In this document: positions 32,543 through 49,913 of the stretch, piece by piece
Position numbering within the stretch: position 1 is the stretch's first letter
Layout: every line of letters starts with the position of its first letter
Origin: Deltaproteobacteria bacterium
GTDB lineage: Bacteria; UBA10199; SPLOWO2-01-44-7
Reading direction: 5' to 3'
Assembly (NCBI GenBank): GCA_030648035.1
Contig: JAUSII010000122.1
Span: forward strand, 24,537-88,536
DNA length: 64,000 nt
Notes under the pieces: model-generated
Database searches by the model: none
What the model was told of the DNA's origin: nothing
The model's input: only the letters and a program-made list of their open reading frames with translations
Program-made: the position numbers and the translations under genes

Positions 32543-32992
32543 TTGCAGAGTAGGGAAATGCAAACACTCAAGAAAAAGATATTCATCGTCGATGACCACC
32601 CGATCGTCAGGGGTGGTCTTGCCCAACTCATCAATCAGGAAGAGGATATGATGTCTGTCGGTGAAGCGGGAAATGCCACAGAAGCGATTCAGGGGATTGA
32701 AAAATTAAAACCCGATCTGGTGCTCATGGATATCTCTCTGGAAGGCTCCAACGGAATAGAACTGACCAAAGGCATTCTGGCGGAACACCCCGAAATATGC
32801 GTGTTGATCATTTCGATGTATGACGAATCTCTCTATCTGGAGTCTGCCTTGCGGGCCGGGGCAAAAGGTTATCTGACAAAGCAACTGGCGTCAGATCATG
32901 TAGTCGTCGCCATTCGCACGGTTCTGAAAGGCGATATTTACATCAGCGATAAGTGGAAAGACAAGCTCACTGACAGCAAAAAACCCCTCTAG
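32543..32992 (+). CDS. receiver-domain-only response regulator (NarL/FixJ-type REC without HTH)
   Basis: Aligns to the REC domain of the full-length LuxR regulator at 42394-43068 (IFIVDDHPIVRGGLAQLINQE...), but stops after the REC. The stop codon lies inside motif P1. Confidence 0.8.
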   Translation: MQSREMQTLKKKIFIVDDHPIVRGGLAQLINQEEDMMSVGEAGNATEAIQGIEKLKPDLVLMDISLEGSNGIELTKGILAEHPEICVLIISMYDESLYLESALRAGAKGYLTKQLASDHVVVAIRTVLKGDIYISDKWKDKLTDSKKPL

Positions 32993-33035
32993 GGTAATCC
33001 CCCAGTCAAAAACCGTGTCTCCCCCGATTGTTCAC
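32990..33035 (+). promoter_or_regulatory. regulon motif copy P1 (TAGGGTAATCCCCCAGTCAAAAACCGTGTCTCCCCCGATTGTTCACCC)
   Basis: 70 bp upstream of 33106, in sense orientation. Confidence 0.7.
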
Positions 33036-33105: not shown

Positions 33106-34923
33106 ATGAGAGTCCGCAAAAAGTTATTCACGAAGTTGCTCACGAAGTTGTTGGTGTCTTTGTCTCTGTCTCTGGCCACTCTGGTAACAGGTTGTGGCGG
33201 GAGTGATGGCGGAGGAGGGGTAGCAGGAACAACCACCGCCCTGGCCAACGTCGTTGTCCCCACTGTAAGTTCCACAAACCCTGCTGATGGTGATGTCGGT
33301 GTATTCATCAACAGAAAGGTGACTGCGGTATTCAGTGAGGATATGGACCCTGCAACCATCGACGACACAGTCTTTGTTTTAAACCAGGGAAGCGTGCCTG
33401 TTTCAGGTGTTGTAACCGCATCGGGTAACGCGGCCACCTTCACGCCCACAGGCAACTTGGGGATAAGCACCGTCTATACGGCAACGATCACGACCGGAGC
33501 CACCAGCTTGGCAGGTAATGGATTGGCCGCCAGTGAAGTATGGAGTTTTACGACAGGGACGACGGCAGATTCCACCGCCCCAACGGTGAGTTCCACAAAC
33601 CCGGTCAACGCGGCCACAGGTGTGGCCATCAACAGTACAGTCGCCGCATCCTTTAGCGAAGAGATGGATCCCCTGACGCTCACGACCTCCACTTTTCAAG
33701 TTTCAGGTCCTGACTCCGTTCTTGTCGCGGGGACGGTCAGCTATGCTTTGGTAGGCAACGTCGCAACCTTTACTCCCACAAGCAGTCTTGCAGTCAACAC
33801 CCTATTTACAGCAACAATCTCTACCGGTGCCAAAGACCTCGCGGGCAATGCGTTGGATTCCAGTAATGTATGGAGCTTTACAACAGGTGCAGTGGCGGAC
33901 AGTGTCGCCCCCACCGTCAGTTCCACCAACCCTGCTGATGCCGATGTGAGTGTGGCTCTTAACAAGACAATCTCCGCCACCTTCAGTGAGTCGATGAACG
34001 CCGCAACAATCACCACGGCAAACTACACATTGGCAGGGCCCGGCGCGGTTCCCGTCACAGGAACAGTCGACTATGTTTTGGCAACCAACATTGTAACCTT
34101 TACTCCCGCAAGCAATCTCGCACCGAGCACCTTATTTACAGCAACGATCAGCACCGGTGCCAAGGATCTCGCGGGGAATGCATTGGCTTCCAATAAAGTG
34201 TGGACCTTTACATCAGGGACAGAAGCGGCTCAGACTGTCGCTCAAACAGTAGTCCCCCTTGGATCGTCTTCCACCTTCGCGATTCTGGCTTCTGCGGCAA
34301 TCACCAGTATCCCGACTTCATCCGTTATCGGAGATATCGGTCTGACCCCGGATGCCGGATCCAATCTCACCGGGTTAACATGTTCAGAAATAACAGGCAC
34401 AGTCTACGTCACCAGTGCGGGTGGCAGTACTCTCGCCTGTCAGACCATCAGCGCGAGCATTCTCGATACCGCCAAAACCGATGCGGCCACTGCGTTCACC
34501 AATGCCAGGGACGCTGTTCGCGGAACACCTGCATCCATATCGGGCAATCTGAATGGTCTCACGCTGTATCCCGGGCTGTATGAATCGGGCACCTCGCTTG
34601 AGATATCCGCTGGCGGCATCCTTTATCTGGATGCTCAAGGCGATGCGGATGCCATCTTCGTCATCCGGAGTGAAACCTCCATCACCACACTGTCCACAAG
34701 CCAGATCGTCTTGACCAAAGGCGCAAAGGCCAACAACGTCTACTGGACAGCGGGAAGTGCGGTGACTCTGGGAGCCAACTCGATCATGAAGGGAACTTTC
34801 ATCGCGGGTACTGCGCTCACACTGCAGACCGGTGCAAACCTGGAAGGAAGAGCGTTGAACCAGGGTGCATCCGCCGCGGCGATTTCACTCGACGCCAGCA
34901 CTATTACCGTGCCTTCACCGTAG
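33106..34923 (+). CDS. secreted protein: 4 bacterial Ig-like (SbsA/Big_5-type) repeats + C-terminal DUF3494 ice-binding-like domain
   Basis: Lipobox/signal VTGCGG. Repeats APTVSSTNP...FTPxxNLAxxTLFTATIxTGAKDLAGNAL. C-terminal FAILASAAIT...GNLNGLTLYPGLYESG...NVYWTAGSAVTLGANS matches the DUF3494/IBP fold signature. Confidence 0.85.
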   Translation: MRVRKKLFTKLLTKLLVSLSLSLATLVTGCGGSDGGGGVAGTTTALANVVVPTVSSTNPADGDVGVFINRKVTAVFSEDMDPATIDDTVFVLNQGSVPVSGVVTASGNAATFTPTGNLGISTVYTATITTGATSLAGNGLAASEVWSFTTGTTADSTAPTVSSTNPVNAATGVAINSTVAASFSEEMDPLTLTTSTFQVSGPDSVLVAGTVSYALVGNVATFTPTSSLAVNTLFTATISTGAKDLAGNALDSSNVWSFTTGAVADSVAPTVSSTNPADADVSVALNKTISATFSESMNAATITTANYTLAGPGAVPVTGTVDYVLATNIVTFTPASNLAPSTLFTATISTGAKDLAGNALASNKVWTFTSGTEAAQTVAQTVVPLGSSSTFAILASAAITSIPTSSVIGDIGLTPDAGSNLTGLTCSEITGTVYVTSAGGSTLACQTISASILDTAKTDAATAFTNARDAVRGTPASISGNLNGLTLYPGLYESGTSLEISAGGILYLDAQGDADAIFVIRSETSITTLSTSQIVLTKGAKANNVYWTAGSAVTLGANSIMKGTFIAGTALTLQTGANLEGRALNQGASAAAISLDASTITVPSP

Positions 34924-35740: not shown

Positions 35741-37417
35741 TTAAGGAATGTTTTTAAGAATGCAAGTCAGGATGACTCCGTGGGGTATGTTGGGTTCCAC
35801 TTGAAAAGAGGCGCCTATGATGTGGGCACGGTTTTTCATGATCTTCAAGCCGATGCCTTTTGCATTTTGAGGATCCCCTACAAATCCTGTCCCTGCATCT
35901 TTGATGGTGAGGACAATGTTGCCGTTATTTCGAATGAAGCTGACATCGATCTCTTTGGCCTTCCCATGTTTGATCGCATTGACAATCCCCTCCTGCGCGA
36001 TTTTATAAATATGCGTGGCGACATCATTCTTGCTGATGAGAATGGGCTCGGGACAATAAAACCGGCACGAAACACCCGAAAGAGTCTGGTTGGCAGTCAA
36101 CTCTTCCAGCATATACATCAGGGAATTTCCTTCCAGCTCCCCCGGATAGAGGCCCCTCGCGGTATCCCGCGCCTGACTGGCGGCCCCATTGAGCAGGTCT
36201 GAAACTTTTTTCAAATCCGCCACGTCCAGATGTTTTCCCCTTTCCTTCTTTTGGGTGAGACTTTTCATCACCATCATGATCCCCGCCAGATCCTGGCAAA
36301 GACCGTCGTGAAGTTGTGCCCCAAAACATCTCTGCTCCGTATGGGTAATCTCCAATATTTCTTTGTTACTTTTAAGCAGTTCGGCGGTTCTTTCCTGAAC
36401 GCGCATTTCCATCTCTTCAAAAATAATCTGCAACCGCTCTTCCGCTTCTTTTCTCACAATAAATTGGCCCACCTGACCGCCAATGGTATCAAAGGTCTGC
36501 AACAACTCCTTATCAAAGCTTTTGCTCTCGATGCTGAAAAACTCCATGACCCCCAACATCTTTTTGCCCAGGCAAATCGGGAAAGCGACAGCACTCTTGA
36601 GACCCGCTTTCATCGCATGAGGAATACGTGAAAAATGGGGCGACTGGGCAAGATCGATGATCCAGCGCGGCTTTCCGCTCTCCCAGACTTCACATGGCAA
36701 TTCAACACCCTGCAAAAGTAGCGGCTTCTGATTGATTGCGAAAAACTCGGGGGCTTTTACCGAAGGGGAAAACCACGTCTGGTCGCAACGAATCTGGTGG
36801 GAGTCCGTATCCAGCATCCAGAAATTGCCGACGGCCCAACCCAGATTCTCTCCGATCGACTGGAGCACTTTTGGAAGGGCCTTTGCTGTGCCGGGAGCAA
36901 CGGCCAAAATCTGGCTGATCAGAAATTCGGTTTCGCGTTTGGCACTGGACTGACTCAATTGCTCCAACATGTTGGTGATTGTTTCGAGCTGATTTTCAAG
37001 CTCCCTTTTCTGCCGGTAAATCTCAATAAAAATATTCGCCTTGCTCCGGACCATGTGGGAGTCGAGCGGCTTGAGGAGAAAATCGACCGCGCCACTTTCA
37101 TAACCCTTGAACAAGAAGCCCTGGTCCTGGTCGGTCGCGGTGACAAAGATAATCGGAATGCTCCTGGTTTTTTTCGCCCCTCGCATGAGTTCAGCCAGTT
37201 CAAAGCCACTCATGCCGGGCATTTGCACATCAATGAGCGCCAGGGCAAATTCATCGCGCATCATAAACTCCAACGCCTCGGTTCCAGATTTGGCTTTGAA
37301 AATGGCGAGATCATCGCGCTTGAGCAATCCTTCCAGGGCAAGCAGATTGTCTTGCAGATCATCAACGAGGAGGATCTTGATCTGATTGGCATTTTTTTTC
37401 TTGTTTGGGTTCATCAT
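35741..37417 (-). CDS. hybrid REC-GAF-histidine kinase (HisKA_3/NarX-type HK)
   Basis: N-terminal receiver (ILLVDDLQDN...ALIDVQMPGMSG), GAF domain, an HisKA_3-type phospho-accepting His region, and HATPase (GIGLKIM). Confidence 0.85.
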   Translation of the reverse strand: MMNPNKKKNANQIKILLVDDLQDNLLALEGLLKRDDLAIFKAKSGTEALEFMMRDEFALALIDVQMPGMSGFELAELMRGAKKTRSIPIIFVTATDQDQGFLFKGYESGAVDFLLKPLDSHMVRSKANIFIEIYRQKRELENQLETITNMLEQLSQSSAKRETEFLISQILAVAPGTAKALPKVLQSIGENLGWAVGNFWMLDTDSHQIRCDQTWFSPSVKAPEFFAINQKPLLLQGVELPCEVWESGKPRWIIDLAQSPHFSRIPHAMKAGLKSAVAFPICLGKKMLGVMEFFSIESKSFDKELLQTFDTIGGQVGQFIVRKEAEERLQIIFEEMEMRVQERTAELLKSNKEILEITHTEQRCFGAQLHDGLCQDLAGIMMVMKSLTQKKERGKHLDVADLKKVSDLLNGAASQARDTARGLYPGELEGNSLMYMLEELTANQTLSGVSCRFYCPEPILISKNDVATHIYKIAQEGIVNAIKHGKAKEIDVSFIRNNGNIVLTIKDAGTGFVGDPQNAKGIGLKIMKNRAHIIGASFQVEPNIPHGVILTCILKNIP

Positions 37418-37542: not shown

Positions 37543-38403
37543 TCATTTCTTTTGAAAAATACGGTCCTTTTTTACAAAAGGATCAAAATATTTTGCATAT
37601 TGTGAAAACTGAATCGTCTCCTTGGCGCCCACACCCAAAAAACCTTTCCGGCAAAGCGACTCGTGAAAAAGTCCAAAGGCCCTGTCTTGCAGTTCGCGAT
37701 CAAAATAGATAAGCACATTCCGGCACGAGATCAACTGTGTTTCCATAAACACCGCATCGGTCACGAGACTATGATCTGCGAAGGTGATTTTTTTCTTCAA
37801 AATACTTTTGAATTTCGCCAGATTATCCGTTGCCGTGTAGTAGTCCGAAAGCGACCGCTTTCCACCCGACTTCTGGTAGTTCTCGGCGAAGCTCTGGATC
37901 ATTTTCAATTTAAAAACACCCTTTTCAGCTTTTTCAAGACTTCTGGGGTTGATATCAGTTGCATACAGGGTTGTGCGCGAAAGCAACCCCTCTTCCTGCA
38001 GCAGAATCGCAAGCGAATAGACCTCTTCTCCCGTACTGCATCCGGCGACCCAGACTTTGAGGGAAGGATAGGTTTTGAGCAATGGAAATACTTTTTGCCT
38101 CAACGCCAGAAAATAAGTGGGGTCGCGAAACATCTCGCTCACAGGAATCGTGAGAGATTCAATCAGATCATGGAAAAAATCAGAATCTTGGAGGATTTTT
38201 TTTTGAAGTATCGGGAGGGTGCCGCACCCCATCCGCTCCATCGCATGCACCATCGTTCGTTTCATCGAAGCGGGCGAATAATGCCGAAAATCGTAGTCGT
38301 ATTTAAGATTGATCGCCTCAAGCATGAGCTTCAGTTCGATCTCAAATTGCGGGTTCAGAATCCGTTCCATAAGCCTTAATTGCGCCCCAAGCTTGGCGTC
38401 CAA
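37543..38403 (-). CDS. CheR-type protein-glutamate O-methyltransferase
   Basis: CheR N-terminal helical domain plus SAM-binding core VWVAGCSTGEEVYSLAILL. The 3' end overlaps the start of the giant HK by 28 nt. Confidence 0.85.
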   Translation of the reverse strand: MDAKLGAQLRLMERILNPQFEIELKLMLEAINLKYDYDFRHYSPASMKRTMVHAMERMGCGTLPILQKKILQDSDFFHDLIESLTIPVSEMFRDPTYFLALRQKVFPLLKTYPSLKVWVAGCSTGEEVYSLAILLQEEGLLSRTTLYATDINPRSLEKAEKGVFKLKMIQSFAENYQKSGGKRSLSDYYTATDNLAKFKSILKKKITFADHSLVTDAVFMETQLISCRNVLIYFDRELQDRAFGLFHESLCRKGFLGVGAKETIQFSQYAKYFDPFVKKDRIFQKK

Positions 38404-41400
38404 ACCCGGATGACCGAGAAGAGCTGATGAAGATCGATGGGCTTGGAAAGATAATCATTCGCGCCGGCCTCCATGCAAAGCACCTGATCGTTCTTCGTGG
38501 CTTTGGCTGTCACAGCGATGATGGGAAGTTTTGAAAACCGTTTTTGTTTTCTGATCTCGCGCGTCGCCTGATAGCCATCCATCTCGGGCATCATGATATC
38601 CATGAGGACAAGATCTATGAGAGGATGATCTTTCAGTTTTGCGAGAGCCTCTTTTCCGTTTCTTGCAACCTCGATGTTGGCCCCTTTTTGCTCCAGAGCC
38701 GCGGTCAGCGCAAAGATGTTTCTGACATCGTCATCGACAACGAGAATCATTCTTCCTTTGAAGACATCTTCCCGACTCCGCAAGGTTTTCAGCAATTGCC
38801 GGTTTTCGGGTGAGAGTTTGGACTCCACGCGGTGAAGAAAAAGGCCGACTTCATCGAGCAGTCTCTCCGGAGACCTGGCTCCTTTGATAATGATCGAGCG
38901 GGAATATTTTCGAAGCGTGTCTTCTTCGTCCCGGGAGAGTGAGCGCCCGGTATAAATGATGACGGGGGGAAAGGAGGCCAGCTCTTTTTGTTCCGTCATT
39001 TTCTTCAATAGCTCTTCGCCCGACATATCCGGGAGTTTCAGATCAATCACCATGCAATCATAGACGGTTTTTTTGAGAGCATCGAGTGCCTCTTCCGCCA
39101 GGGCCACAGCCGTGATCTCGATATCGGGATTGGCAATGAGTTTGACCATGCTTTCTCTTTGAAGTTTGTTGTCCTCGACAATCAGAACGCGCTTTAACTT
39201 CTGGGAGAGATTGAATTCAATCTTGGCCAAAGCGGCCTTGAGTGCTTCGCGCTTGGCGGGTTTCAGCGTGTATCCGATGGCCCCCATCTGCATGGCCTTT
39301 TCTGTGTAATCATGCGCCGACGCAATATGGACCGGAATGTGCCGGGTCTTCGGATCTTCTTTGAGCTGGTCGAGCACCGTCAATCCCGAATGATCGGGAA
39401 GCATCATATCGAGCAGAATTGCATCTGGAATAAGACTTTGAGCAAACCCAAGCCCCTCTTCAGCATCTTGCGCGACCACGCACTTGTAGTTCAGCTCATG
39501 GGCCAGATCAAAAAGAATCTGGGCAGACTGCGATTCATCTTCGATCACCAACAACACGCGTCCGGGCTTTGCCCCGCGAGATTTGAGAGTGCCCCGATCA
39601 TCTGCAAAAGGCAGAGGCTGGATTCGCTCTACGCGTGGTTTGACCTGCACTGCGACGGGTAATGACGATGAATAGGCCTTTGGAGATGCCGACACAACGT
39701 GGGACTCGTCATAGGTCTCGGGCAGGAGAAGTGTGAAGCGGCTCCCTTCACCGGGCACACTCTCGACTGCAACAGTGCCACCGAGAAGTCTCGCAAGATC
39801 TCGTGTGATGGAAAGTCCAAGACCTGTGCCACCATATTTTCGATTGGTCGTCCCATCGGCTTGACGAAACGCCTCAAAAATCACTTCTTGTTGGGCTTTT
39901 GGAACCCCGATACCGGTGTCGATCACCGCGAGCGAGAGCTTCCCTTCCGCGCTCCGGGACACATGCAGTATGACCTGTCCTTTTTCCGTGAACTTGAATG
40001 CATTGGAAAGCAGATTCTTCAGAATTTGTTCCAGTCGTTGACGATCTGTGAGCATCGTCTCTGGCACACCCGGATCGATCTTGATTTGAAATTGGAGTTT
40101 CTTTTCGCGGGCCACGGGATCAAAAGTTTTTTCAAGAGTATTAAAAACACTGGGGAGAAACACGTTCTCGGGCCTGATCTCCAGTTTTCCGGCCTCCACT
40201 TTCGAGAGATCGAGAATATCGTTGATGAGATTCAGCAGGTCATTGCCTGCAGACGAGATGGAATGTGCATACTGGACTTGCTCCACGGTCAGGTTTCCAC
40301 CTGCATTGTCCGCGAGAAGCTTCGCCAGAATCAGCGAGCTGTTGAGCGGGGTCCGAAGCTCGTGGGACATATTCGCGAGAAATTCTGACTTATACTGGCT
40401 GGCTCTTTGCACTTCGTCGGACCTCTCTTCAAGCAGTGTCTGCGCTTTGTTGAGGGCCTCATTGTTTTCGTTTAAAATGTCGCGCTGTTGTTCAAGCTTT
40501 TCGTTGGTCTGCTCCAACTCCGATTGCTGATTTTTGAGTTTCGTCTGGGACTCCTGCAATGCGCGCGATTGGTCCTCAAGTTCATCATTGGTCGCTTTCA
40601 ACTCTGCTTGCTGGGTTTGCAGTTCTTCGGTCAAATCCTGCGATCTTTCGAGAAGCTCCTGCTGTTTCTTGCGGCTGATGGAGGTGTTGATCGCAATCCC
40701 GATATTCTCGGACACATGCTCCAGAAATGTTTTTTGATGTTCGGAAAAGGATGCAAAAGAAGCCAGCTCGATCACACCATTGACCTCTCCCTCATAAAAA
40801 ACAGGGGCCAGAAGCAGAGAACTCGGGGTGGAGTCGCCTAAGTCCGAACGGATTTTTCCAAAGTAACGCGAGGGCACTTTTTCGAGAAGGATGGGTCGCT
40901 TTTCCAACGCGGCCTGACCGACCAGCCCCTCTCCAATGGCAATCGTCTTCTCTTTGTCATCCAATTTGGAATAGGCATAACCGCTCACGCGCTTGAGCAT
41001 TTTTTCTTCGGTAACGTAGTAAAAAGCGCCCATCTGGGCATTCAAAAATGGCGCAAGATGACTCAAAACGCTTTGCCCCAGGCGTGAAACATCCTGCTCG
41101 CCGCGCATTTTGTCAGAGAGAGTGATCTGGCCTTCACGAAGAAATTCAAGTTCGCGTGCCTTTTCCCGGAGTGAGGCTTCGGCGTGCTTTCTTTCCGTGA
41201 TATCGCGCTCGGTGGTGGCAATGCCGGTCAGTTTTCCTTTGTCATCTGTGAGTTTGGTATTGATCAGCCAAACATCGATGATCCTGCCGTCTTTATGCTT
41301 TCGCTTGGTCTCAAGATTGGGCAATAATTCTCCGCGTTTCAGCGAGGCAAAAAATCCACGGGCTTCTTCCTGATATTCCGTCGGAACAGTATCAACGATA

Positions 41401-42347
41401 TTTTTGCGCAGTGCTTCCGCTTCTGAATAGCCATACATGGTTTCAGCACCCCGGTTCCATGCCAGGATGTTTCCTTCCAGATCCTGAAAGGTGATGGCAT
41501 CATTCGAATCTTGAATAACCGTCGCCATACGACGAAACTTTTCCAGTGCTCCCATGCGCTCGGAAATATCGCGTTCGGTGGTGGCGATGCCGGTCAGCTT
41601 TCCCTTATCATCCGTGAGTTTGGTGTTGGTCAGCCACACATCGACGATCCGGCCATCTTTGGTTTTTCGTTTTGTTTCCAGATTGGGCACCAGCTCGCCG
41701 CGTTTCAACGAGGCCAAAAATTCACGCGCTTCAGCCTGATATTCGGTGGGCACGGTATCGACGATATTCATGCGCAATGCTTCTGCCTGCGAATAACCAT
41801 AAATTTGTTCAGCGCCATGGTTCCATGCCAGGATGTTGCCTTCCAGATCCTGAAAGGTGATGGCATCATTTGAATCTTGAATAACCGTCGCCATGCGACG
41901 AAACTTTTCCAGTGCGCCCATGCGCTCGGAAATATCGCGTTCGGTGGTGGCGATGCCGGTCAGCTTTCCCTTGTCATCCGTGAGTTTGGTGTTGGTCAGC
42001 CAGACATCAACGATTCTGCCATCTTTGGTTTTTCGTTTTGTCTCCAAGTTGGGCACCAACTCGCCGCGTTTCAGCGAGGCAAGAAATTCACGCGCTTCAG
42101 CCTGATATTCTGTGGGCACGGTATCGACGATATTCATGCGCAAGGCTTCTGCTTCTGAATAGCCATACATGGTTTCAGCACCCTGGTTCCATGCCAAGAT
42201 GTTACCTTCCAAATCCTGAAAGGTGATGGCATCATTCGAATCTTGAATAACAGTCGCCATACGGCGAAATCTTTCCAACGACCCCAATTGCTTGGCAACC
42301 GCTTTGGGGCGTTTCACTTTGCCGTGCTGTTTTAATTTTGGGGCCAT
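38376..42347 (-). CDS. multi-sensor hybrid histidine kinase: 3 tandem PAS, GAF, coiled coil, HisKA-HATPase, 3 receiver domains (1323 aa)
   Basis: Three ~122-aa PAS units (two almost identical), GAF, Q/E-rich coiled coil, H-box MSHELRTPLN, G-box GTGLGLSI, then three D-containing REC domains. Confidence 0.9.
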   Translation of the reverse strand: MAPKLKQHGKVKRPKAVAKQLGSLERFRRMATVIQDSNDAITFQDLEGNILAWNQGAETMYGYSEAEALRMNIVDTVPTEYQAEAREFLASLKRGELVPNLETKRKTKDGRIVDVWLTNTKLTDDKGKLTGIATTERDISERMGALEKFRRMATVIQDSNDAITFQDLEGNILAWNHGAEQIYGYSQAEALRMNIVDTVPTEYQAEAREFLASLKRGELVPNLETKRKTKDGRIVDVWLTNTKLTDDKGKLTGIATTERDISERMGALEKFRRMATVIQDSNDAITFQDLEGNILAWNRGAETMYGYSEAEALRKNIVDTVPTEYQEEARGFFASLKRGELLPNLETKRKHKDGRIIDVWLINTKLTDDKGKLTGIATTERDITERKHAEASLREKARELEFLREGQITLSDKMRGEQDVSRLGQSVLSHLAPFLNAQMGAFYYVTEEKMLKRVSGYAYSKLDDKEKTIAIGEGLVGQAALEKRPILLEKVPSRYFGKIRSDLGDSTPSSLLLAPVFYEGEVNGVIELASFASFSEHQKTFLEHVSENIGIAINTSISRKKQQELLERSQDLTEELQTQQAELKATNDELEDQSRALQESQTKLKNQQSELEQTNEKLEQQRDILNENNEALNKAQTLLEERSDEVQRASQYKSEFLANMSHELRTPLNSSLILAKLLADNAGGNLTVEQVQYAHSISSAGNDLLNLINDILDLSKVEAGKLEIRPENVFLPSVFNTLEKTFDPVAREKKLQFQIKIDPGVPETMLTDRQRLEQILKNLLSNAFKFTEKGQVILHVSRSAEGKLSLAVIDTGIGVPKAQQEVIFEAFRQADGTTNRKYGGTGLGLSITRDLARLLGGTVAVESVPGEGSRFTLLLPETYDESHVVSASPKAYSSSLPVAVQVKPRVERIQPLPFADDRGTLKSRGAKPGRVLLVIEDESQSAQILFDLAHELNYKCVVAQDAEEGLGFAQSLIPDAILLDMMLPDHSGLTVLDQLKEDPKTRHIPVHIASAHDYTEKAMQMGAIGYTLKPAKREALKAALAKIEFNLSQKLKRVLIVEDNKLQRESMVKLIANPDIEITAVALAEEALDALKKTVYDCMVIDLKLPDMSGEELLKKMTEQKELASFPPVIIYTGRSLSRDEEDTLRKYSRSIIIKGARSPERLLDEVGLFLHRVESKLSPENRQLLKTLRSREDVFKGRMILVVDDDVRNIFALTAALEQKGANIEVARNGKEALAKLKDHPLIDLVLMDIMMPEMDGYQATREIRKQKRFSKLPIIAVTAKATKNDQVLCMEAGANDYLSKPIDLHQLFSVIRVWTPSLGRN

Positions 42348-42393: not shown

Positions 42394-43068
42394 CTACTTT
42401 TCAGCGAGACACCATTTAACAGCATATTGGATGAGCTCATGAGAATTTTTCAGGTCCAGCTTGTTTTTAATATTGGCGTAATGCGATTCGATCGTCTTCA
42501 CACTCACAAAAAGTGACTCGGCAATGCGGTTGGTGGCATACCCCTGACCAATGAGTCTCAAGACCTCCAATTCGCGATCGCTTAACTTGCCCGTAGTGGC
42601 CCCGATCAGAGATTTGCCCCCTCCACTGAACTGGTGCATCAGGGTCTCTTTCATACGATCGCTCACATAAATATCACCACTGACCACTTTGCGAATAGCC
42701 GTTGTCACATAATCGGTGGCGGACTGTTTCATGAGATAACCTTTGGCCCCTGCCTTTAAAACACGTTCCACATGAAGAGACTCATCATACATTGAAAGAA
42801 TCAGGACGAGCGTTTTGGGATAATTGGCAACAAGATTTTTGGTGAGTTCGATACCGCTGGTTCCCTGCAGGGAGATATCCACGATCGCCACGTCGGGTTT
42901 GATCTTCGCAATGCTCTTCAGGGCTTCATCAGAAGTTCCGGCCTCTCCAACAGAGATCATATCGCTCTCCTGATTGATGAGCTGGGCCAGGCCCTGTCTG
43001 ACAATCGGATGATCATCAACGATAAAAACCTTCGTTTTTTCCACTTTATTTTTCAACGCGGTATTCAT
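42394..43068 (-). CDS. LuxR/NarL-family response regulator (REC + HTH)
   Basis: REC domain (VFIVDDHPIVRQGL...AIVDISL) plus LuxR-type HTH (LSDRELEVLRLIGQGYATNRIAESLFVSVKTIESH). Confidence 0.9.
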   Translation of the reverse strand: MNTALKNKVEKTKVFIVDDHPIVRQGLAQLINQESDMISVGEAGTSDEALKSIAKIKPDVAIVDISLQGTSGIELTKNLVANYPKTLVLILSMYDESLHVERVLKAGAKGYLMKQSATDYVTTAIRKVVSGDIYVSDRMKETLMHQFSGGGKSLIGATTGKLSDRELEVLRLIGQGYATNRIAESLFVSVKTIESHYANIKNKLDLKNSHELIQYAVKWCLAEK

Positions 43069-43218
43069 CTTCTTGTGTTATGCGCCTTTCATCGGAACAA
43101 TGACAAGTCTTCACTTCAGTCTACACCCTGATGGACTGACCTGTAACCCTTTTATTTTCTTATTTCCATGAGGGAAAACCGTATTTTCAAATGGGGGAAT
43201 CCCCCAGAGTTTGGGCAT

Positions 43219-43292
43219 TGTCATTGCGAGCGCAGCGAAGCAATCCCGTTGATCATCGGGATTGCCACGGCCCCTTCGGGGCCTCGCAATGA
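43219..43292. repeat. GTCATTGCGAG nested-palindrome element, copy 4 (with adjacent half-motif GGAATCCCCCAG at 43193-43215)
   Basis: Full element with terminal inverted repeats. Its 3' flank CTTTGTCAACAAACTCTTAAG + P2 is duplicated at 46770-46858. Confidence 0.8.
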
Positions 43293-43313
43293 CACTTTGT
43301 CAACAAACTCTTA

Positions 43314-43360
43314 AGAAAATCCCCCAGTCAAAAATCGTGGTTCCCCCGATTGTAACCCCT
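43314..43360 (+). promoter_or_regulatory. regulon motif copy P2 (AAAATCCCCCAGTCAAAAATCGTGGTTCCCCCGATTGTAACCCC)
   Basis: About 90 bp upstream of 43451. Confidence 0.7.
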
Positions 43361-43450
43361 CGCCAAAGGCACGTGTGGTGAGGGCTTGACTAAAACACAA
43401 GAAATGGAATACGAACTTTTAAATATTGGGCGGAAGAGAAGAAGGGGAAA

Positions 43451-46400
43451 ATGAGTATGACCGACGGAATATGTTTTAGACCGAATCAAAGCCATTCTGA
43501 AGCAGAAGATGCCAATATGTCCTGTGCGTCTTTTGAATCTTTCAGCTCATCGACCGTTCAGACAGAAGGGGCAGATTCTGGAGGACGAGAACGTTTTTTA
43601 GCGGGCAGAGATTATCTAAGAGATTTGGAAGGGCGTTCTGTTCTGCCAGATGGCTACAAGGGCAAATCCAATGGTATTCCTTTAGGGATATTCGCTGTTG
43701 CCGGCGTTACTGGAACAACAGTGGGACTTATTGCAACGCCTGCAGTTGGACTTGCCGTGGGAGGAGCTATTTTATTGTCCGGATGTTCGGATACAGACAA
43801 CCCAAAGGGAAAAACAGATTCTTCGGCAGAACCGGTATGTAATAAAAATTCTGATTGCAATCCCCCTGTCACAGTTTGTAAAGAGGGAACCTGCCAACCT
43901 CCTAAACCCTGCAATGATGATGAAGATTGCGAGGGAGAAAATGTAAATACTCAATGCGATGATGCTTTGGGAGTATGCAGAGAAAATACCACTTCAATTG
44001 AAATTTGTGACGGCTTAGATAACAACGAGGATGGTAAAATTGATATCGATCCTCAGACAGGTGAAAAAATTTCGAAACCCTGCGGTGGCCGGAGTGTTGG
44101 AATATGCCGTCCAGGGGCACAACACTGCGACGCCGAAAAGAACTCTGCTCAAGAACATTGGAGCGATTGTACAGGAGTTGTTCCGAAAAAGAATGAGCAG
44201 TGTAATGGATTAGATGATGACTGTGATGGCTTAACGGATGAAGACCTGCCCGAATGCGGCCTTCATGTTCCCGTTTTAAATCCGATTGGTGACAAAATTA
44301 TTGATGAGGGACAGCGGTTGAGGTTTGTTTTGTCAGCAGTGGATGCGGATGATAATCCGTTAACCTATTTTGCATCTCACCTTCCGGAGGGAGCTAGATT
44401 TGATCCGGTCGACCGCGTTTTTGATTGGACCCCCAGTTTTGAACAGGCGGATGTCTATTCAGACATTCACTTTGGAGTGAGTGATGGGATAACTACGACT
44501 GGTGAAGATATTACGATCACCGTTCAAAATGTGAATCGTCGGTGTGTCATGTCTCCAATTCCAGATCAGACGGTGGATGAAAATGAATCTTTGGTTGTGA
44601 CCGTAAATGCATCCGACCCGGATGTGGATGACACGTTGATTTTTAGCGGAGATAACTTACCAGCAGGTGCGACAGTAAACTCGAGCACCGGAAAATTAAA
44701 CTGGAGACCCACCCTTACGCAAGCCGGAGCATACCGAGACATCGGGATCACGGCGACAGATGGGGATATGAGCTGTAACCAGCATTTTGATGTTGCGGTT
44801 ATCAATGCCAACCGACCGCCGGTAATGGACGCCATCTCCAATCAGACCATCAATGAAAATCAATTACTCACCGTTACCCCACGGGCCTCCGATCCAGATG
44901 GTCAAACCTTAAATTTCAGTGGCAATAATTTGCCTCGTGGTGCGGTAGTCAATCCAACTACAGGAGTGTTGACTTGGACACCCGGCTTCGATCAGGCCGG
45001 CTCATATCCAAACGTGGGGATCACCGCGAGTGATGGGAGTTTAAGCGTTACACAAAGATTTAGTATAACCGTTAATAATGGAAACAGGCCGCCAGTAATG
45101 GAAGCCATCCCCAATCGGACTATCAATGAGAATCAATTACTTACCATCACCCCACGGGCCTCTGATCCAGACGGTCAAACTTTAAATTTCAGTGGCAATA
45201 ATTTACCCCGCGGTGCGGCAGTTAATTCAACTACAGGGGTGTTGACTTGGACCCCCGGCTTCGATCAAGCGGGCACATACCCAAACGTGGGGATCACCGC
45301 GAGTGATGAAAATTTAAGCGTCACACAAAGATTTAGTATCACCGTTAATAACGTAAACAGTCCTCCAATTTTAAATTCAATCGGCAATAGAACTGTCAAT
45401 GAAGGAGGATTGTTGACGTTTACCGTTTTTGCATCCGATCCAGATGGAGATGCGCTGACCTATTCCGCCTCCAATCTGCCGACGGGATCGAGTTTTAATG
45501 TTTCAACGAGAGTTTTCAGTTGGACACCAAATTGCAGGCAAGCGGGTGCATATCCGGTAAGTTTTTCTGTGACAGATCGTGGGACACCCAATTTATCAGA
45601 TAGTGAAAATGTTATGGTCACAGTTAACGAAGCCTGTTCCAATGTTGCGTGGACTAGAACATATAATGGATCGTTTAATGGTAGGGATATCGGCCATGGC
45701 ATCGCCGTGGATAATAATGGGAATGTGTATGTGACGGGTTCTGAGGAGGCTACTGAACTAAATTATAATATTTGGGTCAGGAAGTATGATGCCAATGGCA
45801 ACACTTTATGGACAAGGACCTATAATGGCTCTGCTAATAGTACTGATGAAGGCCGAGGCATCGCCGTAGATAATAATGGAAATGTGTATGTGACTGGGTC
45901 TGAAATTGTTGCCGGGCAACGTAGTAATGTTTGGGTTAGAAAATATGATACCAATGGCAATGCTTTATGGACCGAAACCTATAATAATCCTGCTAACAGT
46001 TCGGATGAAGGTCACGGCATCGCTGTAGATAATAATGGGAATGTGTATGTAGCGGGAGATGAGAATGTTGCTGTACAATATGCTAATATCTGGGTCAGAA
46101 AATATGATGCCAATGGCAATGCCTTATGGACCAAGACCTATAATAATCCTGCTAATGGTCCTGATATGGGCCAAGGCATTGCCGTAGACAATGTTGGAAA
46201 TGTGTATGTGACGGGTTTTGAGGATGCTGATGAGGAATCTTTTAATATCTGGATCAGGAAGTATGATGCCAATGGCAATACTTTATGGACAAGGACCCAT
46301 AATGCCAATTGGGGAGATTTCGGCAACGGTATTGCCGTAGACGGAAATGGAAATGTGTATGTGACGGGTTCTGAGACTGTTGTTGCGGGAAATGATAATA

Positions 46401-46714
46401 TATGGATCAGGAAATATGATACCAATGGCAATACTTTATGGACGGAAACCCATAATGGATCTGCTAATAATCTGGATAGTGGCAATGGCATTACCATAGA
46501 TAGAAATGGAAATGTGTATGTGACGGGTTTTGAAGCTGTTGCTGGAGGAGGTGGAAATGTCTGGGTCAGAAAATATGATACCGATGGTAACACTCTATGG
46601 ACGGAGACCCATAATGGTGGTGTCGGCCAAGGTATCGCCGTAGATATTAATGGGAATGTGTATGTGACGGGGCAGGAGAACGGAGATATCTGGGTCAGAA
46701 AGTATGTGCCGTAG
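43451..46714 (+). CDS. giant surface protein: Cys-rich MopE-like N-region, >=5 cadherin-like/He_PIG Ig repeats, C-terminal 8-bladed SBBP beta-propeller
   Basis: TM/lipobox around LLSGCSD. ~92-aa repeats PPVMxAIxNxTINENQLL...FSITVNN include two near-identical tandem copies. Eight NIWVRKYDxNGNxLWTxTYNG...GIAVDNNGNVYVTG units match the SBBP repeat. Confidence 0.8.
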   Translation: MSMTDGICFRPNQSHSEAEDANMSCASFESFSSSTVQTEGADSGGRERFLAGRDYLRDLEGRSVLPDGYKGKSNGIPLGIFAVAGVTGTTVGLIATPAVGLAVGGAILLSGCSDTDNPKGKTDSSAEPVCNKNSDCNPPVTVCKEGTCQPPKPCNDDEDCEGENVNTQCDDALGVCRENTTSIEICDGLDNNEDGKIDIDPQTGEKISKPCGGRSVGICRPGAQHCDAEKNSAQEHWSDCTGVVPKKNEQCNGLDDDCDGLTDEDLPECGLHVPVLNPIGDKIIDEGQRLRFVLSAVDADDNPLTYFASHLPEGARFDPVDRVFDWTPSFEQADVYSDIHFGVSDGITTTGEDITITVQNVNRRCVMSPIPDQTVDENESLVVTVNASDPDVDDTLIFSGDNLPAGATVNSSTGKLNWRPTLTQAGAYRDIGITATDGDMSCNQHFDVAVINANRPPVMDAISNQTINENQLLTVTPRASDPDGQTLNFSGNNLPRGAVVNPTTGVLTWTPGFDQAGSYPNVGITASDGSLSVTQRFSITVNNGNRPPVMEAIPNRTINENQLLTITPRASDPDGQTLNFSGNNLPRGAAVNSTTGVLTWTPGFDQAGTYPNVGITASDENLSVTQRFSITVNNVNSPPILNSIGNRTVNEGGLLTFTVFASDPDGDALTYSASNLPTGSSFNVSTRVFSWTPNCRQAGAYPVSFSVTDRGTPNLSDSENVMVTVNEACSNVAWTRTYNGSFNGRDIGHGIAVDNNGNVYVTGSEEATELNYNIWVRKYDANGNTLWTRTYNGSANSTDEGRGIAVDNNGNVYVTGSEIVAGQRSNVWVRKYDTNGNALWTETYNNPANSSDEGHGIAVDNNGNVYVAGDENVAVQYANIWVRKYDANGNALWTKTYNNPANGPDMGQGIAVDNVGNVYVTGFEDADEESFNIWIRKYDANGNTLWTRTHNANWGDFGNGIAVDGNGNVYVTGSETVVAGNDNIWIRKYDTNGNTLWTETHNGSANNLDSGNGITIDRNGNVYVTGFEAVAGGGGNVWVRKYDTDGNTLWTETHNGGVGQGIAVDINGNVYVTGQENGDIWVRKYVP

Positions 46715-46724
46715 AAAAAACCAT

Positions 46725-46782
46725 CCCGGGATTGCCCCCTTCGACAAGCTCAGGGTGAGCGGTGTTGAAGGGCCTCGCAATG
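46725..46782. repeat. GTCATTGCGAG element, partial copy 5 (right half only)
   Basis: CCCGGGATTGC...GGGCCTCGCAATGAC with the left terminus absent; followed by the same spacer + P3 as at copy 4. Confidence 0.7.
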
Positions 46783-46805
46783 ACACTTTGTCAACAAATC
46801 GCTTA

Positions 46806-46850
46806 GGAAAATCCCCCAGTCAAAAATCGTGGTTCCCCCGATTGTGCCAG
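46806..46850 (+). promoter_or_regulatory. regulon motif copy P3
   Basis: AAAATCCCCCAGTCAAAAATCGTGGTTCCCCCGATTGTGCC, 27 bp upstream of the 46877 ATG. Confidence 0.7.
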
Positions 46851-46876
46851 CCCTCCATACTTTGTAAGTTTGTTGC

Positions 46877-47383
46877 ATGATGAAACTAAAAAAAATGATT
46901 GGACTTGGATTGGCCTCGTTGATCTGCATCACCAGTTTATCTGCGCTGGCCAGAGGCAAAGGTTACACTTCCTACGGACCTGAAGAGATGCGTTTCGGCG
47001 CCGGACTTTATCTGGGCGAGCCGACCGGGTTCACCTTTAAAGGATATGTGACCGAAAAACTGGCCATTGATGGTATCGCCGGATGGGGTTTGAACCATAA
47101 GGTCTTTACCATGATTGGAGATGTCACCTACGATTTTCTCGATATTCCGATCGACTCCACTGTTGTGAAACTTCCCTTATACGCCGGTATTGGCACGAAG
47201 CTGGAATTCAAGGTCGGGCCCAACGACGACACCACGGTGGGCCTTCGGGCACCTATCGGTATCGCTGTGCAATGGCTCCACCATCCCTTCGAGGTCTTTG
47301 CCGAAATTGCCCCGGGAATGAAAGTCTCCCCCTCCGCAGGTTTTGACATTATGGGCGGCGTCGGCGTGCGATTCTACTTCTAA
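46877..47383 (+). CDS. small 8-strand-type outer-membrane beta-barrel protein (OmpW/OmpX-like), C-terminal F
   Basis: Signal peptide, alternating aromatic beta-strands, terminal ...GVGVRFYF. Confidence 0.8.
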   Translation: MMKLKKMIGLGLASLICITSLSALARGKGYTSYGPEEMRFGAGLYLGEPTGFTFKGYVTEKLAIDGIAGWGLNHKVFTMIGDVTYDFLDIPIDSTVVKLPLYAGIGTKLEFKVGPNDDTTVGLRAPIGIAVQWLHHPFEVFAEIAPGMKVSPSAGFDIMGGVGVRFYF

Positions 47384-47430
47384 GGTAATCCCCCAGTCAA
47401 AAATCCGGCATCCCCCGATTGTCATCCCAT
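47381..47430 (+). promoter_or_regulatory. regulon motif copy P4
   Basis: TAAGGTAATCCCCCAGTCAAAAATCCGGCATCCCCCGATTGTCATCCC; starts at the stop codon of the OMP gene. Confidence 0.7.
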
Positions 47431-48235: not shown

Positions 48236-48285
48236 CTAAGGAAATCCCCCAGTCAAAAACCGTGTCTCCCCCGATTGTTCATCCC
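48236..48285 (+). promoter_or_regulatory. regulon motif copy P5
   Basis: GGAAATCCCCCAGTCAAAAACCGTGTCTCCCCCGATTGTTCATCCC, near-identical to P1. Confidence 0.7.
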
Positions 48286-48350: not shown

Positions 48351-49913
48351 ATGATGAGAAATTATAAGATGTTGTTCACGGCTTTATTTCTGGCCGCTTT
48401 CATAGCTGGATGCGGAGGTGGTAACGGGGAAGAGGTGGCAGAAACACCCGCCGCCACTACTACTACCACCACGACCACCAGCACGACGACAGACGCCACC
48501 GATACAACGGCGGGCATCACCGGCACGGCGACAGGCACCACCAGTGCAGCGGTCGACACCACTGCACCCACGGTGAGTTCCACAGACCCCGTCAATGCGG
48601 CCACAGATGTGGCGATTGACAAAAAAATCTCTGCAACCTTCGACGAAGAGATGGATTCCCTGACAGTCACAACCACAAATTTTCTGGTCACAGGACCCGG
48701 AACAACTTCCGTCTCCGGAACTCTCGCTTTGGTGGGCAACATCGCAACCTTTACTCCTGGAAGCAATCTCGCGGCCAACACCTTATTTACGGTAACGGTC
48801 ACCACCGGTGCCAAGGATATTGCAGGCAATGCATTGGCCAGTGATAACGTATCGACCTTTACCACCGGTGCAACGGCAGACTTGACCGCCCCCACCGTGA
48901 GTTCCACCAATCCTGCCAACGCTGATGGGAGCGTGGCCATTAACAAAAAAGTCACCGCCACCTTTAGTGAGTCGATGGATTCTGCAACAATCATCACGGC
49001 AAACTATACAGTGACGGGACCTGGAGCAACCCCCGTCGCAGGAACTCTGGCGTTGGTTGGCAACGTTGCAACATTTACCTCTGACAGCAATTTCGCACCC
49101 AGCACACTGTTTACAGCAACGATCACCACCGGGGCCAAAGACGCCGCTGGCAATGCGTTGGCCTCCGATAAAGTGTGGACCTTTACAACAGGAACAGAGG
49201 CGGCTCAAAGCGTCGCTCAAGCAACAGTGCCCCTTGGATCATCCTCAAATTTTGCAATTCTGGCTTCTGCCGCAATCACCAACGTCGCGACTTCCGTGAT
49301 TAATGGAGATGTCGGTTTGACTCCGGATGCCGGATCCAACATCAGCGGGTTCAGCGCTCCAGACACATGCCCGGAAGTGACAGGCAAGATATACGCCGTG
49401 GATGCAACAGGTCCTGCGTGCATTATACCTGCGCAACAAAATCCGACGCTTCTTTCGGATGCCAAAACCGATGCTGGAATTGCATTCACCAATGCCAGAA
49501 ACGCTGTTCGCGGAACGCCTGCATCCATCTCGGGCAATCTGAATGGGCTGACACTGTATCCCGGCTTATATGAATCCGGAACTTCGCTTGAAATATCTGC
49601 AGGTGGCTTTCTTTATCTGGATGCTCAAGGCGATGCGAATGCCGTCTTCGTTATTCGGAGTGAAACCTCTATCACCACGCTGTCCACCAGTGAAGTTGTT
49701 TTGACCAAGGGCGCAAAAGCGGCCAACGTCTACTGGATAGCGGGGAGTTCGGTAACTCTTGGAGCGAACTCGATCATGAAGGGAACCTTTGTAGCAGGAA
49801 CATCCATTGCGCTACAGACCGGTGCAAACCTGGAAGGAAGAGCATTGAATCAGGGTGCGTCGGCTGAAGCGGTTACACTGGATTCCAGCACCATCACCGT
49901 GCCTTCTCTGTAA
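48351..49913 (+). CDS. secreted paralog: Thr-rich linker + 2-3 Ig-like repeats + DUF3494 ice-binding-like domain
   Basis: Lipobox FIAGCGG and poly-Thr linker. Its Ig repeats and C-terminal DUF3494 region are closely similar to 33106-34923 and almost co-linear over the last 250 aa. Confidence 0.85.
   Translation: MMRNYKMLFTALFLAAFIAGCGGGNGEEVAETPAATTTTTTTTSTTTDATDTTAGITGTATGTTSAAVDTTAPTVSSTDPVNAATDVAIDKKISATFDEEMDSLTVTTTNFLVTGPGTTSVSGTLALVGNIATFTPGSNLAANTLFTVTVTTGAKDIAGNALASDNVSTFTTGATADLTAPTVSSTNPANADGSVAINKKVTATFSESMDSATIITANYTVTGPGATPVAGTLALVGNVATFTSDSNFAPSTLFTATITTGAKDAAGNALASDKVWTFTTGTEAAQSVAQATVPLGSSSNFAILASAAITNVATSVINGDVGLTPDAGSNISGFSAPDTCPEVTGKIYAVDATGPACIIPAQQNPTLLSDAKTDAGIAFTNARNAVRGTPASISGNLNGLTLYPGLYESGTSLEISAGGFLYLDAQGDANAVFVIRSETSITTLSTSEVVLTKGAKAANVYWIAGSSVTLGANSIMKGTFVAGTSIALQTGANLEGRALNQGASAEAVTLDSSTITVPSL

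Follow-up and report, generated by a model that had tools for sequence, protein, structure and literature searches.

In a 64-kb stretch of DNA from an uncultured deltaproteobacterial lineage (hereafter the window), a segment of about 95 bp at 43270-43358 recurs almost identically at 46768-46852, upstream of two unrelated genes, one for a surface-type He_PIG/SBBP protein and the other for an OMP-like protein. The segment joins one arm of a palindromic element (PAL) to the promoter motif of a regulon, and a sequence-only reading had suggested that in some cases the promoter has been spread by recombination or transposition of the repeat element. The question raised by the locus is thus whether the element disseminates the promoter or whether the two were copied together once.

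Two copies of a composite block

The repeat is genuine, although its limits shift slightly from those first proposed: alignment of 43279-43353 with 46770-46845 gives 72 identical columns out of 76, with three mismatches and one one-base indel. The copies, 3.49 kb apart, are near-identical direct repeats in the same orientation at both ends of the intervening segment, and each is composed of the right half of the REPIN-like PAL, a 23/24-nt linker and the upstream half of the regulon promoter (Table 1). As the earlier reading held, the duplication took in both the motif and the right part of the palindromic element. Two perfect tracts, the arm plus ACTTTGTCAACAAA (29 nt) and GAAAATCCCCCAG...GATTGT (39 nt), flank the 8 nt, within the linker and left half-site, that contain all the differences. 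Both copies end sharply, the flanks past GATTGT and to the left of GGGCCTCGC being unrelated; leftward, a weaker similarity interrupted by indels reaches CGGGATTGCC (43256 / 46728), so that the block measures 76 bp within its sharp ends and ~98 bp with the interrupted part included.

The recurrence is not a matter of chance. The window holds eight matches to the motif core against 0.05 expected and nine matches to the PAL arm against 1.3 expected, and the 14-nt linker ACTTTGTCAACAAA occurs in it twice, both times in the block. The spacer GTGGT and the left half-site GAAAATCC are common to both copies and are found in none of the 26 other unique motif copies.

Table 1. Features of the locus and other motif copies in the window
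Feature	Coordinates	Strand	Details
REC/GAF/HisKA_3 kinase	35741-37417	-	regulator operon
CheR-like	37543-38403	-	regulator operon
Hybrid histidine kinase	38376-42347	-	regulator operon
Response regulator gene	42394..43068	-	REC + GerE/LuxR HTH (Pfam); first gene of operon
Degenerate motif copy facing regulator operon	43163..43207	-	PWM 24.3; best of 20 shuffles 0.9
Junction sequence	43208..43219	.	AGTTTGGGCATT, 12 nt, between ancestral operator and PAL; L015 orthology breaks here
Complete PAL	43220..43293	.	11-nt terminal inverted repeats GTCATTGCGAG / CTCGCAATGAC; inner hairpins GCAATCCCG..CGGGATTGC and GGCCCCTTCGGGGCC
Block copy A	43279..43353	+	PAL right arm, linker ACTTTGTCAACAAACTCTTAAGAA, motif through GATTGT; aligned with copy B
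Motif copy before SBBP gene	43311..43355	+	PWM 60.4; no TAnnnT -10 hexamer at conserved 17-nt spacing
SBBP gene, inserted	43451..46714	+	1087 aa, surface-type; Cys-rich MopE-like region, 4 He_PIG, 7 SBBP repeats (Pfam)
Truncated PAL	46721..46784	.	no left arm or loop; nested 23-nt module TTCGACAAGCTCAGGGTGAGCGG in hairpin 1
Block copy B	46770..46845	+	PAL right arm, linker ACTTTGTCAACAAATCGCTTAGGAA, then motif; aligned with copy A
Motif copy before OMP gene	46803..46870	+	PWM 64.0; -35 TTGTGC 46842-46847, 17-nt spacer, -10 TAAGTT 46865-46870
OMP-like gene	46877..47383	+	168 aa, signal-peptide-like N-terminus, no Pfam match
Motif copy before DUF883-like gene	47380..47424	+	PWM scan
Other motif copies	starts 18772, 32989, 48236, 49979, 60679	+	each upstream of a plus-strand gene

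The regulon motif and its predicted promoter

The motif, a conserved 45-nt module of promoter-upstream sequence, is present in nine copies in the window according to a PWM scan (scores of 43-75 for those on the plus strand) and in about 24 further non-redundant copies in 116 kb from relatives; a motif-pattern search returned one locus in genome contigs and three in metagenome contigs, all from other organisms. All 28 unique copies face a downstream gene, and their consensus is TAgGGnAATCCCCcAGTcAAAAAtC..G.cTCCCCcGATTGTtc, 17 nt, then TAnnnT. The column counts read TTGTtc, 17 nt, T(23)A(21)nnnT(21), with genes beginning 30-110 nt downstream, while a strict promoter-consensus scan of the window matches only at the 47419 copy. 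Comparison of the copies suggests the following upstream half, counted from the putative -10: a 17-bp palindrome, TAGGGnAATCCCCYAG, with its centre at about -66 would serve as operator, and it would be followed by an A-tract (roughly -55 to -51), a second TCCCCCGA box (roughly -43 to -36) and the -35 hexamer TTGTnn. A dimeric activator would bind the operator and recruit sigma-70-type polymerase to the weak -35/-10 pair. Copy A may be inactive as a promoter, since no -10 can be recognised in it at the conserved distance.

Other readings of the motif were considered and rejected. Compared by eye with the consensus sequences for sigma-54 and sigma-28/ECF promoters, the motif has no GG-N10-GC, and its spacing misfits TAAA-N15-GCCGATAA; TTGTtc-17-TAnnnT appears to fit a sigma-70-type core better than either. 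Given that TAnnnT lies downstream at a fixed distance, most of the motif would be upstream of the likely transcription start, which argues against an RNA leader. An Rfam search of the window at gathering thresholds reported three tRNAs only, neither PAL nor the motif being a described RNA family.

The motif defines a general-stress-like regulon, comprising CsbD, DUF883, DUF1328, Dps, transaldolase and OMPs, that is tied to a NarL-type two-component system. In content it resembles the general stress regulons of the RpoS/SigB type, which are normally controlled by sigma factors. To judge from sequence, the activator is probably the adjacent NarL/LuxR-type response regulator. As in autoregulated NarL/FixJ regulons, the regulator gene (REC + GerE, with a HisKA_3 kinase in the cluster) is a neighbour of regulon genes and is preceded by a predicted operator copy of its own, at 43207(-) in the window, at 1796(+) in L008 (score 33.2) and at 890(-) in L015 (22.2); the same gene cluster is present in L008/L009. 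However, the operator TAGGGGAATCCCCTA corresponds to no described NarL or LuxR box. The palindromic operator upstream of a weak -35/-10 pair recalls class I-like activator-dependent sigma-70 promoters, from which the locus differs in the unusual length (45 nt) of the conserved module.

The regulator-side copy clarifies the separate half-motif that had been placed against the left PAL arm at 43193. The sequence is real and contains the 17-bp palindrome ATGGGGGAATCCCCCAG at 43191-43207, but it lies 12 nt away from the arm and is not a separate half, being the core of a complete, degenerate minus-strand copy that faces the response-regulator gene. Orthologous minus-strand copies exist in L015 and in L018 (position 54, score 21.4), and 43163-43207 aligns with the intergenic sequence of L015, L016 and L018 through CCCC(C/T)AG and diverges beyond.

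The palindromic element

PAL is a hairpin-forming inverted doublet of ~30-nt units with a variable loop, each unit containing the small palindrome ATTGC..GCAAT. The terminal inverted repeats are perfect in all four complete copies of the window, and the element folds with z = -5.1 to -6.6, the copy at 43220..43293 reaching -44.1 kcal/mol (z = -6.6); the truncated copy, which begins 7 nt past the stop codon of the SBBP gene, folds no better than shuffled sequences (z = -1.7). Copies are dispersed and extragenic, lie mostly just after stop codons or at gene ends, and are very widespread: unrelated contigs totalling 1.12 Mb yielded 134 unique copies.

The dispersed extragenic location, the doublet architecture with a variable loop and the preference for positions just after stop codons liken PAL to REP/REPIN elements, which are reportedly mobilised by RAYT transposases. 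Classical REP families are usually species-specific. In contrast, identical 11-nt PAL arms occur in contigs of 36-73% GC, and no RAYT gene was seen near the copies examined. PAL is termed REPIN-like here as a candidate relative of these elements. No consistent target-site duplication surrounds the four complete window copies, and the ORFs beside window copies encode unrelated domains and no transposase domains. Clustering of the ORFs within 1.5 kb of 140 PAL copies in IMG/VR loci likewise revealed no recurrent transposase, the clusters being what we take, from our own reading of the sequences, to be phage or GTA structural proteins. A literature search with the PAL arm and inner-repeat sequences returned unrelated primer matches or nothing, and no description of the element was found. 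A similarity between 14782-14799 and 43182-43200, each to the left of a PAL copy, was judged to be chance because the first of these stretches is part of the ligA coding sequence.

Origin of the duplication

Relatives preserve the orthologous empty site. There the OMP gene is the divergent neighbour of the regulator gene; in L015/L016 the two (80% and 68% identical to the window regulator and OMP, respectively) stand 210 bp apart, and a shared palindromic operator serves a plus-strand motif copy (57.4) and a minus-strand copy (22.2). L018 has the same conserved regulator-side box beside the OMP gene. Relative to this arrangement, the window promoter is split directly after the operator (CCCCCAG) by ~3.6 kb, which hold, in order, PAL, the linker, the motif, the SBBP gene, the truncated PAL, and the linker plus motif. 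Right of 46845, past GATTGT, the OMP leader is orthologous to those of L017 and L015, while the SBBP leader does not align. A homologue search found no orthologue for the N-terminal 300 aa of the SBBP protein (only ~40% identity over ~30% of the query), and GC content differs modestly, 42-49% in the SBBP gene against ~50% in its neighbours. We consider it probable that a single local direct duplication brackets a lineage-specific SBBP/He_PIG gene lying inside a promoter once shared, in both directions, by the regulator operon and the OMP gene. The block would thus occur twice because this gene sits inside an older two-way promoter, and its duplication would place a second gene under the same regulator.

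The proposal that a MITE transposes the regulon promoter to new genes, be it PAL itself or a longer element with linker and motif, draws on the perfect terminal inverted repeats and dispersal of PAL and on the position of the block before two unrelated genes. Moreover, AATCCCCCAG at 43198-43207 and 43318-43327 brackets PAL plus linker and is readable as a 10-bp target-site duplication, yet it is part of the motif itself. Promoter-bearing MITEs are documented, among them the Neisseria Correia elements, MITEAba12 and QMITE1 (PMC10969869), and they share with this locus a short terminal-inverted-repeat element directly upstream of genes and next to promoter sequence. In those cases, however, the promoter is internal to the element and all copies of a given subtype carry it, whereas here the motif starts 17 nt outside the PAL arm, most elements have no motif and most motifs have no element. 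Three of the four complete window copies are without motif and linker, as are all 134 unique copies in the other contigs (best PWM score -2.6), and the linker is confined to its two occurrences. Conversely, a PAL arm adjoins just two of the nine window motif copies, both derived from one duplication event, and none of those at 47380, 18772, 32989, 48236, 49979 and 60679; an overlap of two or more is expected by chance with P = 0.24 in a rough intergenic-region test. No PAL arm was found beside the ~24 motif copies of relatives, where the same regulon genes, including the OMP homologues in L015, L017, L006, L019 and L020, hold the motif at the same positions. The second copy is, furthermore, a truncated element that has neither a left arm nor a target-site duplication. 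Across the window, the relatives and the other contigs, motif and palindrome are therefore not associated beyond chance. The MITE proposal is thus highly improbable, and of the earlier suggestion recombination stands as the likely cause, while the element as a vehicle of the promoter does not.

Two further explanations concern the block itself. PAL may have inserted twice, independently, by two motif copies through a preference for the hairpin-forming operator or its neighbourhood, with gene conversion, for which the PAL arm and the motif served as anchors, subsequently equalising the linker. This would suit an identical tract that ends exactly at the outer limits of arm and motif, differences clustered in its middle, internal modules that differ between the two PAL copies, and the usual location of PAL just after stop codons, as seen for the truncated copy after SBBP. 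It would, however, take two insertions that happened to fall equally far from a motif copy, any targeting must be weak given the seven other window copies and the ~24 in relatives that have no PAL, and the split of the ancestral bidirectional promoter is left unexplained by itself; we regard it as unlikely. An assembly artefact, namely a mis-join or collapse at the 39-nt perfect repeat, which would mean that the regulator is really next to the OMP gene and that the SBBP unit belongs to some other place, a tandem array or a different strain, deserves attention because the source is a short-read metagenome-assembled genome, the motif is a nine-copy repeat in 64 kb, and swapping the two downstream paths at the repeat restores the L015 arrangement. 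Nevertheless, unique sequence connects copy A with PAL and the operator remnant (43191-43293), and the four differences between the perfect tracts mark the two block copies as distinct, each of them attached in the contig to a flank of its own. An independent Logan unitig (1.3 kb, SRR13727527) begins with the first 31-mer that only the OMP copy contains, which is the graph branching expected of a true two-copy repeat; branching exactly at the shared 30-mer end means that both right-hand extensions exist in the sample. An artefact is accordingly very unlikely.

On balance, we favour a scenario in which a new gene came under the control of the regulon through one local duplication or recombination event. 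The PAL arm would then have been carried along or, at most, have offered homology for the recombination. For the pathway we infer two candidate routes, Campbell-type integration of a circle bearing one block copy and illegitimate insertion with in-situ duplication. Near-identical direct repeats around 3.4 kb of sequence missing at the orthologous position in relatives recall a segment integrated by single-crossover (Campbell-type) recombination, or else a segmental duplication, although here the repeat is only 76 bp and is built of two pre-existing repeat families. A counterpoint is that both ends of the identical tract fall at the ends of the PAL arm and the motif, each of which is repeated independently, a pattern that also fits homology-anchored gene conversion; in addition, the two PAL copies differ in the hairpin-1 module, and a nested insertion or deletion must have followed if the duplication took place in one simple step. 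It is conceivable, albeit doubtful, that PAL elements have a preference for inserting next to, or recombining at, the hairpin-forming operator of this stress regulon, and that PAL-operator junctions act as portable homology patches recruiting new genes. If so, a repeat element would help to rewire a regulon without carrying a promoter, the recruit here being an orphan surface protein.

On this reading, the duplication is a one-off local rearrangement and not the work of a mobile element spreading promoters. The motif itself is ancient, has been passed on vertically and at other loci has multiplied along with its genes; in the sequence covered, the tempting generalisation that a MITE spreads the regulon promoter proves wrong. 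Two by-products may prove more broadly useful than the duplication itself, namely the 45-nt module of a general-stress-like regulon in an uncultured deltaproteobacterial lineage and the recognition of PAL as a very widespread family, for which the sequence-based literature search and Rfam yielded no description. The locus itself offers a dated, sequence-level example of a new gene attached to an existing regulon: the upstream activating half of a promoter was duplicated, the bidirectional promoter was split, and the empty site can still be seen in relatives.

The duplicated block and the divided promoter

The block upstream of the gene for the surface-type He_PIG/SBBP protein (SBBP; copy A, 43279-43353) and that upstream of the gene for the 168-aa OMP-like protein (OMP; copy B, 46770-46845) are identical in 72 of 76 aligned columns; the differences, three substitutions and a one-base indel, are all confined to 8 nt of the linker and the left half-site. 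The block has sharp ends, its flanks being unrelated to the left of GGGCCTCGC and to the right of GATTGT, and comprises the right terminal repeat (CTCGCAATGAC) of PAL, a palindromic element with terminal inverted repeats; a linker starting ACTTTGTCAACAAA, found within the window at these two sites only; and a full copy of the 45-nt promoter-upstream motif, whose core AATCCCCCAGTCAAAAATC has eight matches in the window against 0.05 expected. Looser similarity, broken by indels, extends left to CGGGATTGCC (43256 and 46728). Given the alignment, the restricted linker and the enrichment of the core, the repeat described in the sequence-only reading is real and far beyond chance, although the limits proposed for it were a few bases too wide. 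The window comes from a short-read MAG, and an independent Logan unitig (SRR13727527) starts at 46816, its first 31-mer being the first to include a base unique to the OMP copy, as expected of a genuine two-copy repeat when the graph is built with k = 31; this is evidence that the sample contains both copies, but no proof of their chromosomal order.

Orthologous loci show the arrangement in a relative (L015/L016) whose regulator and OMP are 80% and 68% identical, respectively, to those of the window. In that relative, the two genes are adjacent and divergently oriented, with 210 bp between them, and one palindrome is shared by the motif copy of the OMP gene on the plus strand and that of the regulator gene on the minus strand. 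At another locus, L018, which begins with the same conserved box of the regulator side (CCATGAGGGAA..CC.TATT), the OMP gene follows immediately. Positions 43130-43207 of the window align with this region of L015/L016/L018 through CCCC(C/T)AG and then diverge. On the other side, beyond 46845, the window matches the OMP leaders of L015 and a further locus, L017, at an equal distance to the start codon; the SBBP leader shows no such match. Because the left and right sides align in this way, an ancestral bidirectional promoter has been split by ~3.6 kb, the contents of which are listed in order in the table.

Features of the window, with the order of elements in the split promoter
Feature	Position	Strand	Basis
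tRNA gene	995-1082	-	found in window
tRNA gene	1728-1800	-	found in window
tRNA gene	15667-15738	+	found in window
Complete PAL	4410-4490		sequence scan
Complete PAL	12360-12431		sequence scan
Complete PAL	14822-14892		sequence scan
Complete PAL	43220-43293		sequence scan
Truncated PAL	46721-46784		sequence scan
Motif copies	18772, 32989, 43311, 46803, 47380, 48236, 49979, 60679	+	motif scan
Ninth motif copy	43207 down to 43163	-	45-nt PWM, score 24.3
Regulator gene	42394-43068	-	
SBBP gene	43451-46714		
OMP gene	46877-47383		
Split, 1: junction AGTTTGGGCATT	after operator		alignment break
Split, 2: complete PAL	then linker and motif		sequence reading
Split, 3: SBBP leader, then gene	after copy A motif		sequence reading
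Split, 4: truncated PAL	starts 7 nt after SBBP stop codon		sequence reading
Split, 5: linker and left part of motif	ends split		sequence reading

The motif, its regulon and the candidate regulator

All eight plus-strand motif copies in the window sit ahead of plus-strand genes. Searching with the motif pattern also found copies in a Deltaproteobacteria MAG and metagenome contigs, and many more were obtained from contigs encoding OMP homologues. The consensus of 28 unique copies is TAgGGnAATCCCCcAGTcAAAAAtC..G.cTCCCCcGATTGTtc, followed by a pyrimidine-rich 17-nt spacer and TAnnnT (T in 23, A in 21 and T in 21 of the 28). The core may be read as a sigma-70-type promoter, with the -35 hexamer TTGTtc, 17 nt and the -10 hexamer TAnnnT. 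Upstream of it, counting from this putative -10, a conserved activating region would comprise a palindrome of 17 bp with its centre near -66, an A-tract at about -55 to -51 and, at about -43 to -36, a second TCCCCCGA box. What had been taken for a half-motif near 43193 is indeed present in the sequence, but it is the palindrome core ATGGGGGAATCCCCCAG (43191-43207) of the ninth copy, which faces the regulator gene and scores 24.3 with a 45-nt position weight matrix derived from these 28, compared with a maximum of 0.9 in 20 shuffles. Orthologous minus-strand copies in L015 (22.2) and L018 (21.4) have the same degenerate form and end in TCCCTCATGG/TAG. The OMP promoter of L018 (1-92) is shortened, its palindrome being fused directly to TTCCCCGAT and the -35 (ATAGGGGTTTCCCCGATAGCATTGTTCC), and it looks as if the stretch separating the two C-runs has been deleted.

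The genes served by the motif include those for two CsbD-like proteins, DUF883-like and DUF1328 proteins, Dps/ferritin, transaldolase, OMP, OmpA-family and DUF1207 proteins, and two Big_5/Ice-binding-like paralogues, a list similar to the RpoS and SigB general-stress regulons. The motif defines this general-stress-like regulon and is conserved in several uncultured relatives. A NarL/LuxR-type regulator (REC + GerE) adjoins regulon genes in the window, L008/L009 and L015/L016, where its operon is preceded by a motif copy of its own; in the window and L008/L009, it is accompanied by a hybrid kinase, a CheR-like protein and a REC/GAF/HisKA_3 kinase. Most economically, the palindrome (candidate operator TAGGGGAATCCCCTA) would be bound by a two-component activator that also regulates its own operon. 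The motif copies at 32989-33033 and 48236-48280, which have the spacer GTGTC in common, precede the Big_5/Ice-binding-like paralogues at 33106-34923 and 48351-49913, respectively; at these two genes, the promoter appears to have been duplicated along with the gene.

The palindromic element and its relation to the motif

The PAL copies in the window are located at gene ends, and the complete ones fold into strong branched hairpins (z of -5.1 to -6.6 against shuffles), whereas the truncated copy folds no better than shuffles (z = -1.7). Scanning IMG/VR for both arms (GTCATTGCGAG and CTCGCAATGAC) 40-65 nt apart returned at least 120 loci; those listed hold at least 134 unique copies on contigs of 36-73% GC, and PAL is a very widespread family. 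Among the copies listed, the base pair directly outside the arms co-varies (C..G in 82, T..A in 34). Because each half is typically GTCATTGCGAG-CGnAGCGaAGCAATCC, PAL resembles two REP-like units joined in inverted orientation and can be called REP/REPIN-like, a resemblance that does not establish family membership. There was no matching family in Rfam and no match in the literature searched by sequence, and no transposase recurs beside the copies in the window or, among the matches listed, beside those in IMG/VR. Judged from sequence alone, many of the IMG/VR host loci resemble phage or GTA structural gene clusters.

A second small repeat module, TTCGACAAGCTCAG(G/C)(G/A)TGAGCGG, occurs at 15622-15644 (-), adjoining a tRNA gene, and at 46740-46762 (+), where its 23 nt are nested in the hairpin 1 loop of the truncated PAL. 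The tRNA gene at 15667-15738 overlaps the listed minus-strand ORF 14907-15737, the start of which is therefore probably placed too far upstream. TTTTCAAGTTGGGGAATC (14782-14799), 22 nt left of PAL 14822 and inside the ligA coding start, resembles TTTTCAAATGGGGGAATC (43182-43200) left of PAL 43220, probably by chance.

Of the nine motif copies in the window, the two that lie next to a PAL arm are those of the duplicated block, each a copy of the other; the motif is missing from three of the four complete PAL copies. By a rough test over 33 intergenic gaps, the probability of at least two overlaps is 0.24 and that of at least one is 0.69. None of ~24 non-redundant motif copies in 116.6 kb from relatives has a PAL arm alongside, the only arm-like matches there falling in other contigs, and two further motif copies, in L019 and L020, are likewise without PAL. 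Among the matches listed, 1.12 Mb around 140 PAL copies of other organisms yielded a best motif score of -2.6, compared with 43-75 for plus-strand copies, and the linker adjoins none of the 140. In the sequence covered, the motif and PAL are not associated beyond this single locus; thus, the motif is a long-standing signal of the regulon, passed on vertically, and PAL a widespread repeat unrelated to it. Elsewhere, the motif appears to have multiplied together with its gene, as with the GTGTC copies (32996 and 48243) of the Big_5/Ice-binding paralogues. MITE-borne promoters are well documented, including Correia elements, MITEAba12 and QMITE1 (PMC10969869). In these, the promoter lies inside the element and is present in its copies; in contrast, this defining feature was looked for in PAL and not found. 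The earlier interpretation is partly supported, for recombination but not for dissemination of the promoter by a MITE.

Origin and function of the duplicate

No orthologue of the SBBP N-terminal region turned up in the database searched, the hits being to MopE-like Cys-rich domains at only ~40% identity, and the gene is slightly lower in GC than its neighbours. The start of the ORF (43451-43780) encodes a ~100-aa N-terminal extension ahead of a lipoprotein-like signal (..AILLSGC); translation may in fact start downstream of the listed position, or newly assembled sequence may make up the 5' region. At 44400-46710, the gene contains internal units repeated in tandem, seven of ~159 nt (SBBP repeats) and others of 273 nt (He_PIG domains), at 60-88% identity.

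The two motif copies of the block have a spacer in common that no other copy contains, so at least the 76-bp block was duplicated at this locus. Exactly two direct repeats around the gene would result if a circular intermediate with SBBP and one block copy had integrated by a single crossover at the chromosomal block. Alternatively, illegitimate insertion with local duplication may have taken the place of circle integration, or the likeness may stem from later gene conversion anchored on the PAL arm and motif. The two PAL copies are unlike in hairpin 1, copy B having the nested 23-nt module, which implies either later further change or independent PAL elements. The event is best described as a local duplication or recombination recruiting a new gene to the regulon, with PAL as a bystander or homology patch.

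Copy B retains both the ancestral leader and the ancestral -10, TAAGTT (46865-46870), which follows TTGTGC after 17 nt. In copy A, the operator, A-tract and -35 are present, with GTGTGG or TGTGGT instead of TAnnnT at the conserved spacing; the duplication would thus supply the SBBP gene with the putative regulator-binding half of the promoter, from which the gene may be expressed. The event is of an ordinary kind, documented unusually clearly; of more interest than the duplication itself are two by-products, the promoter module of the regulon and PAL as a widespread family.
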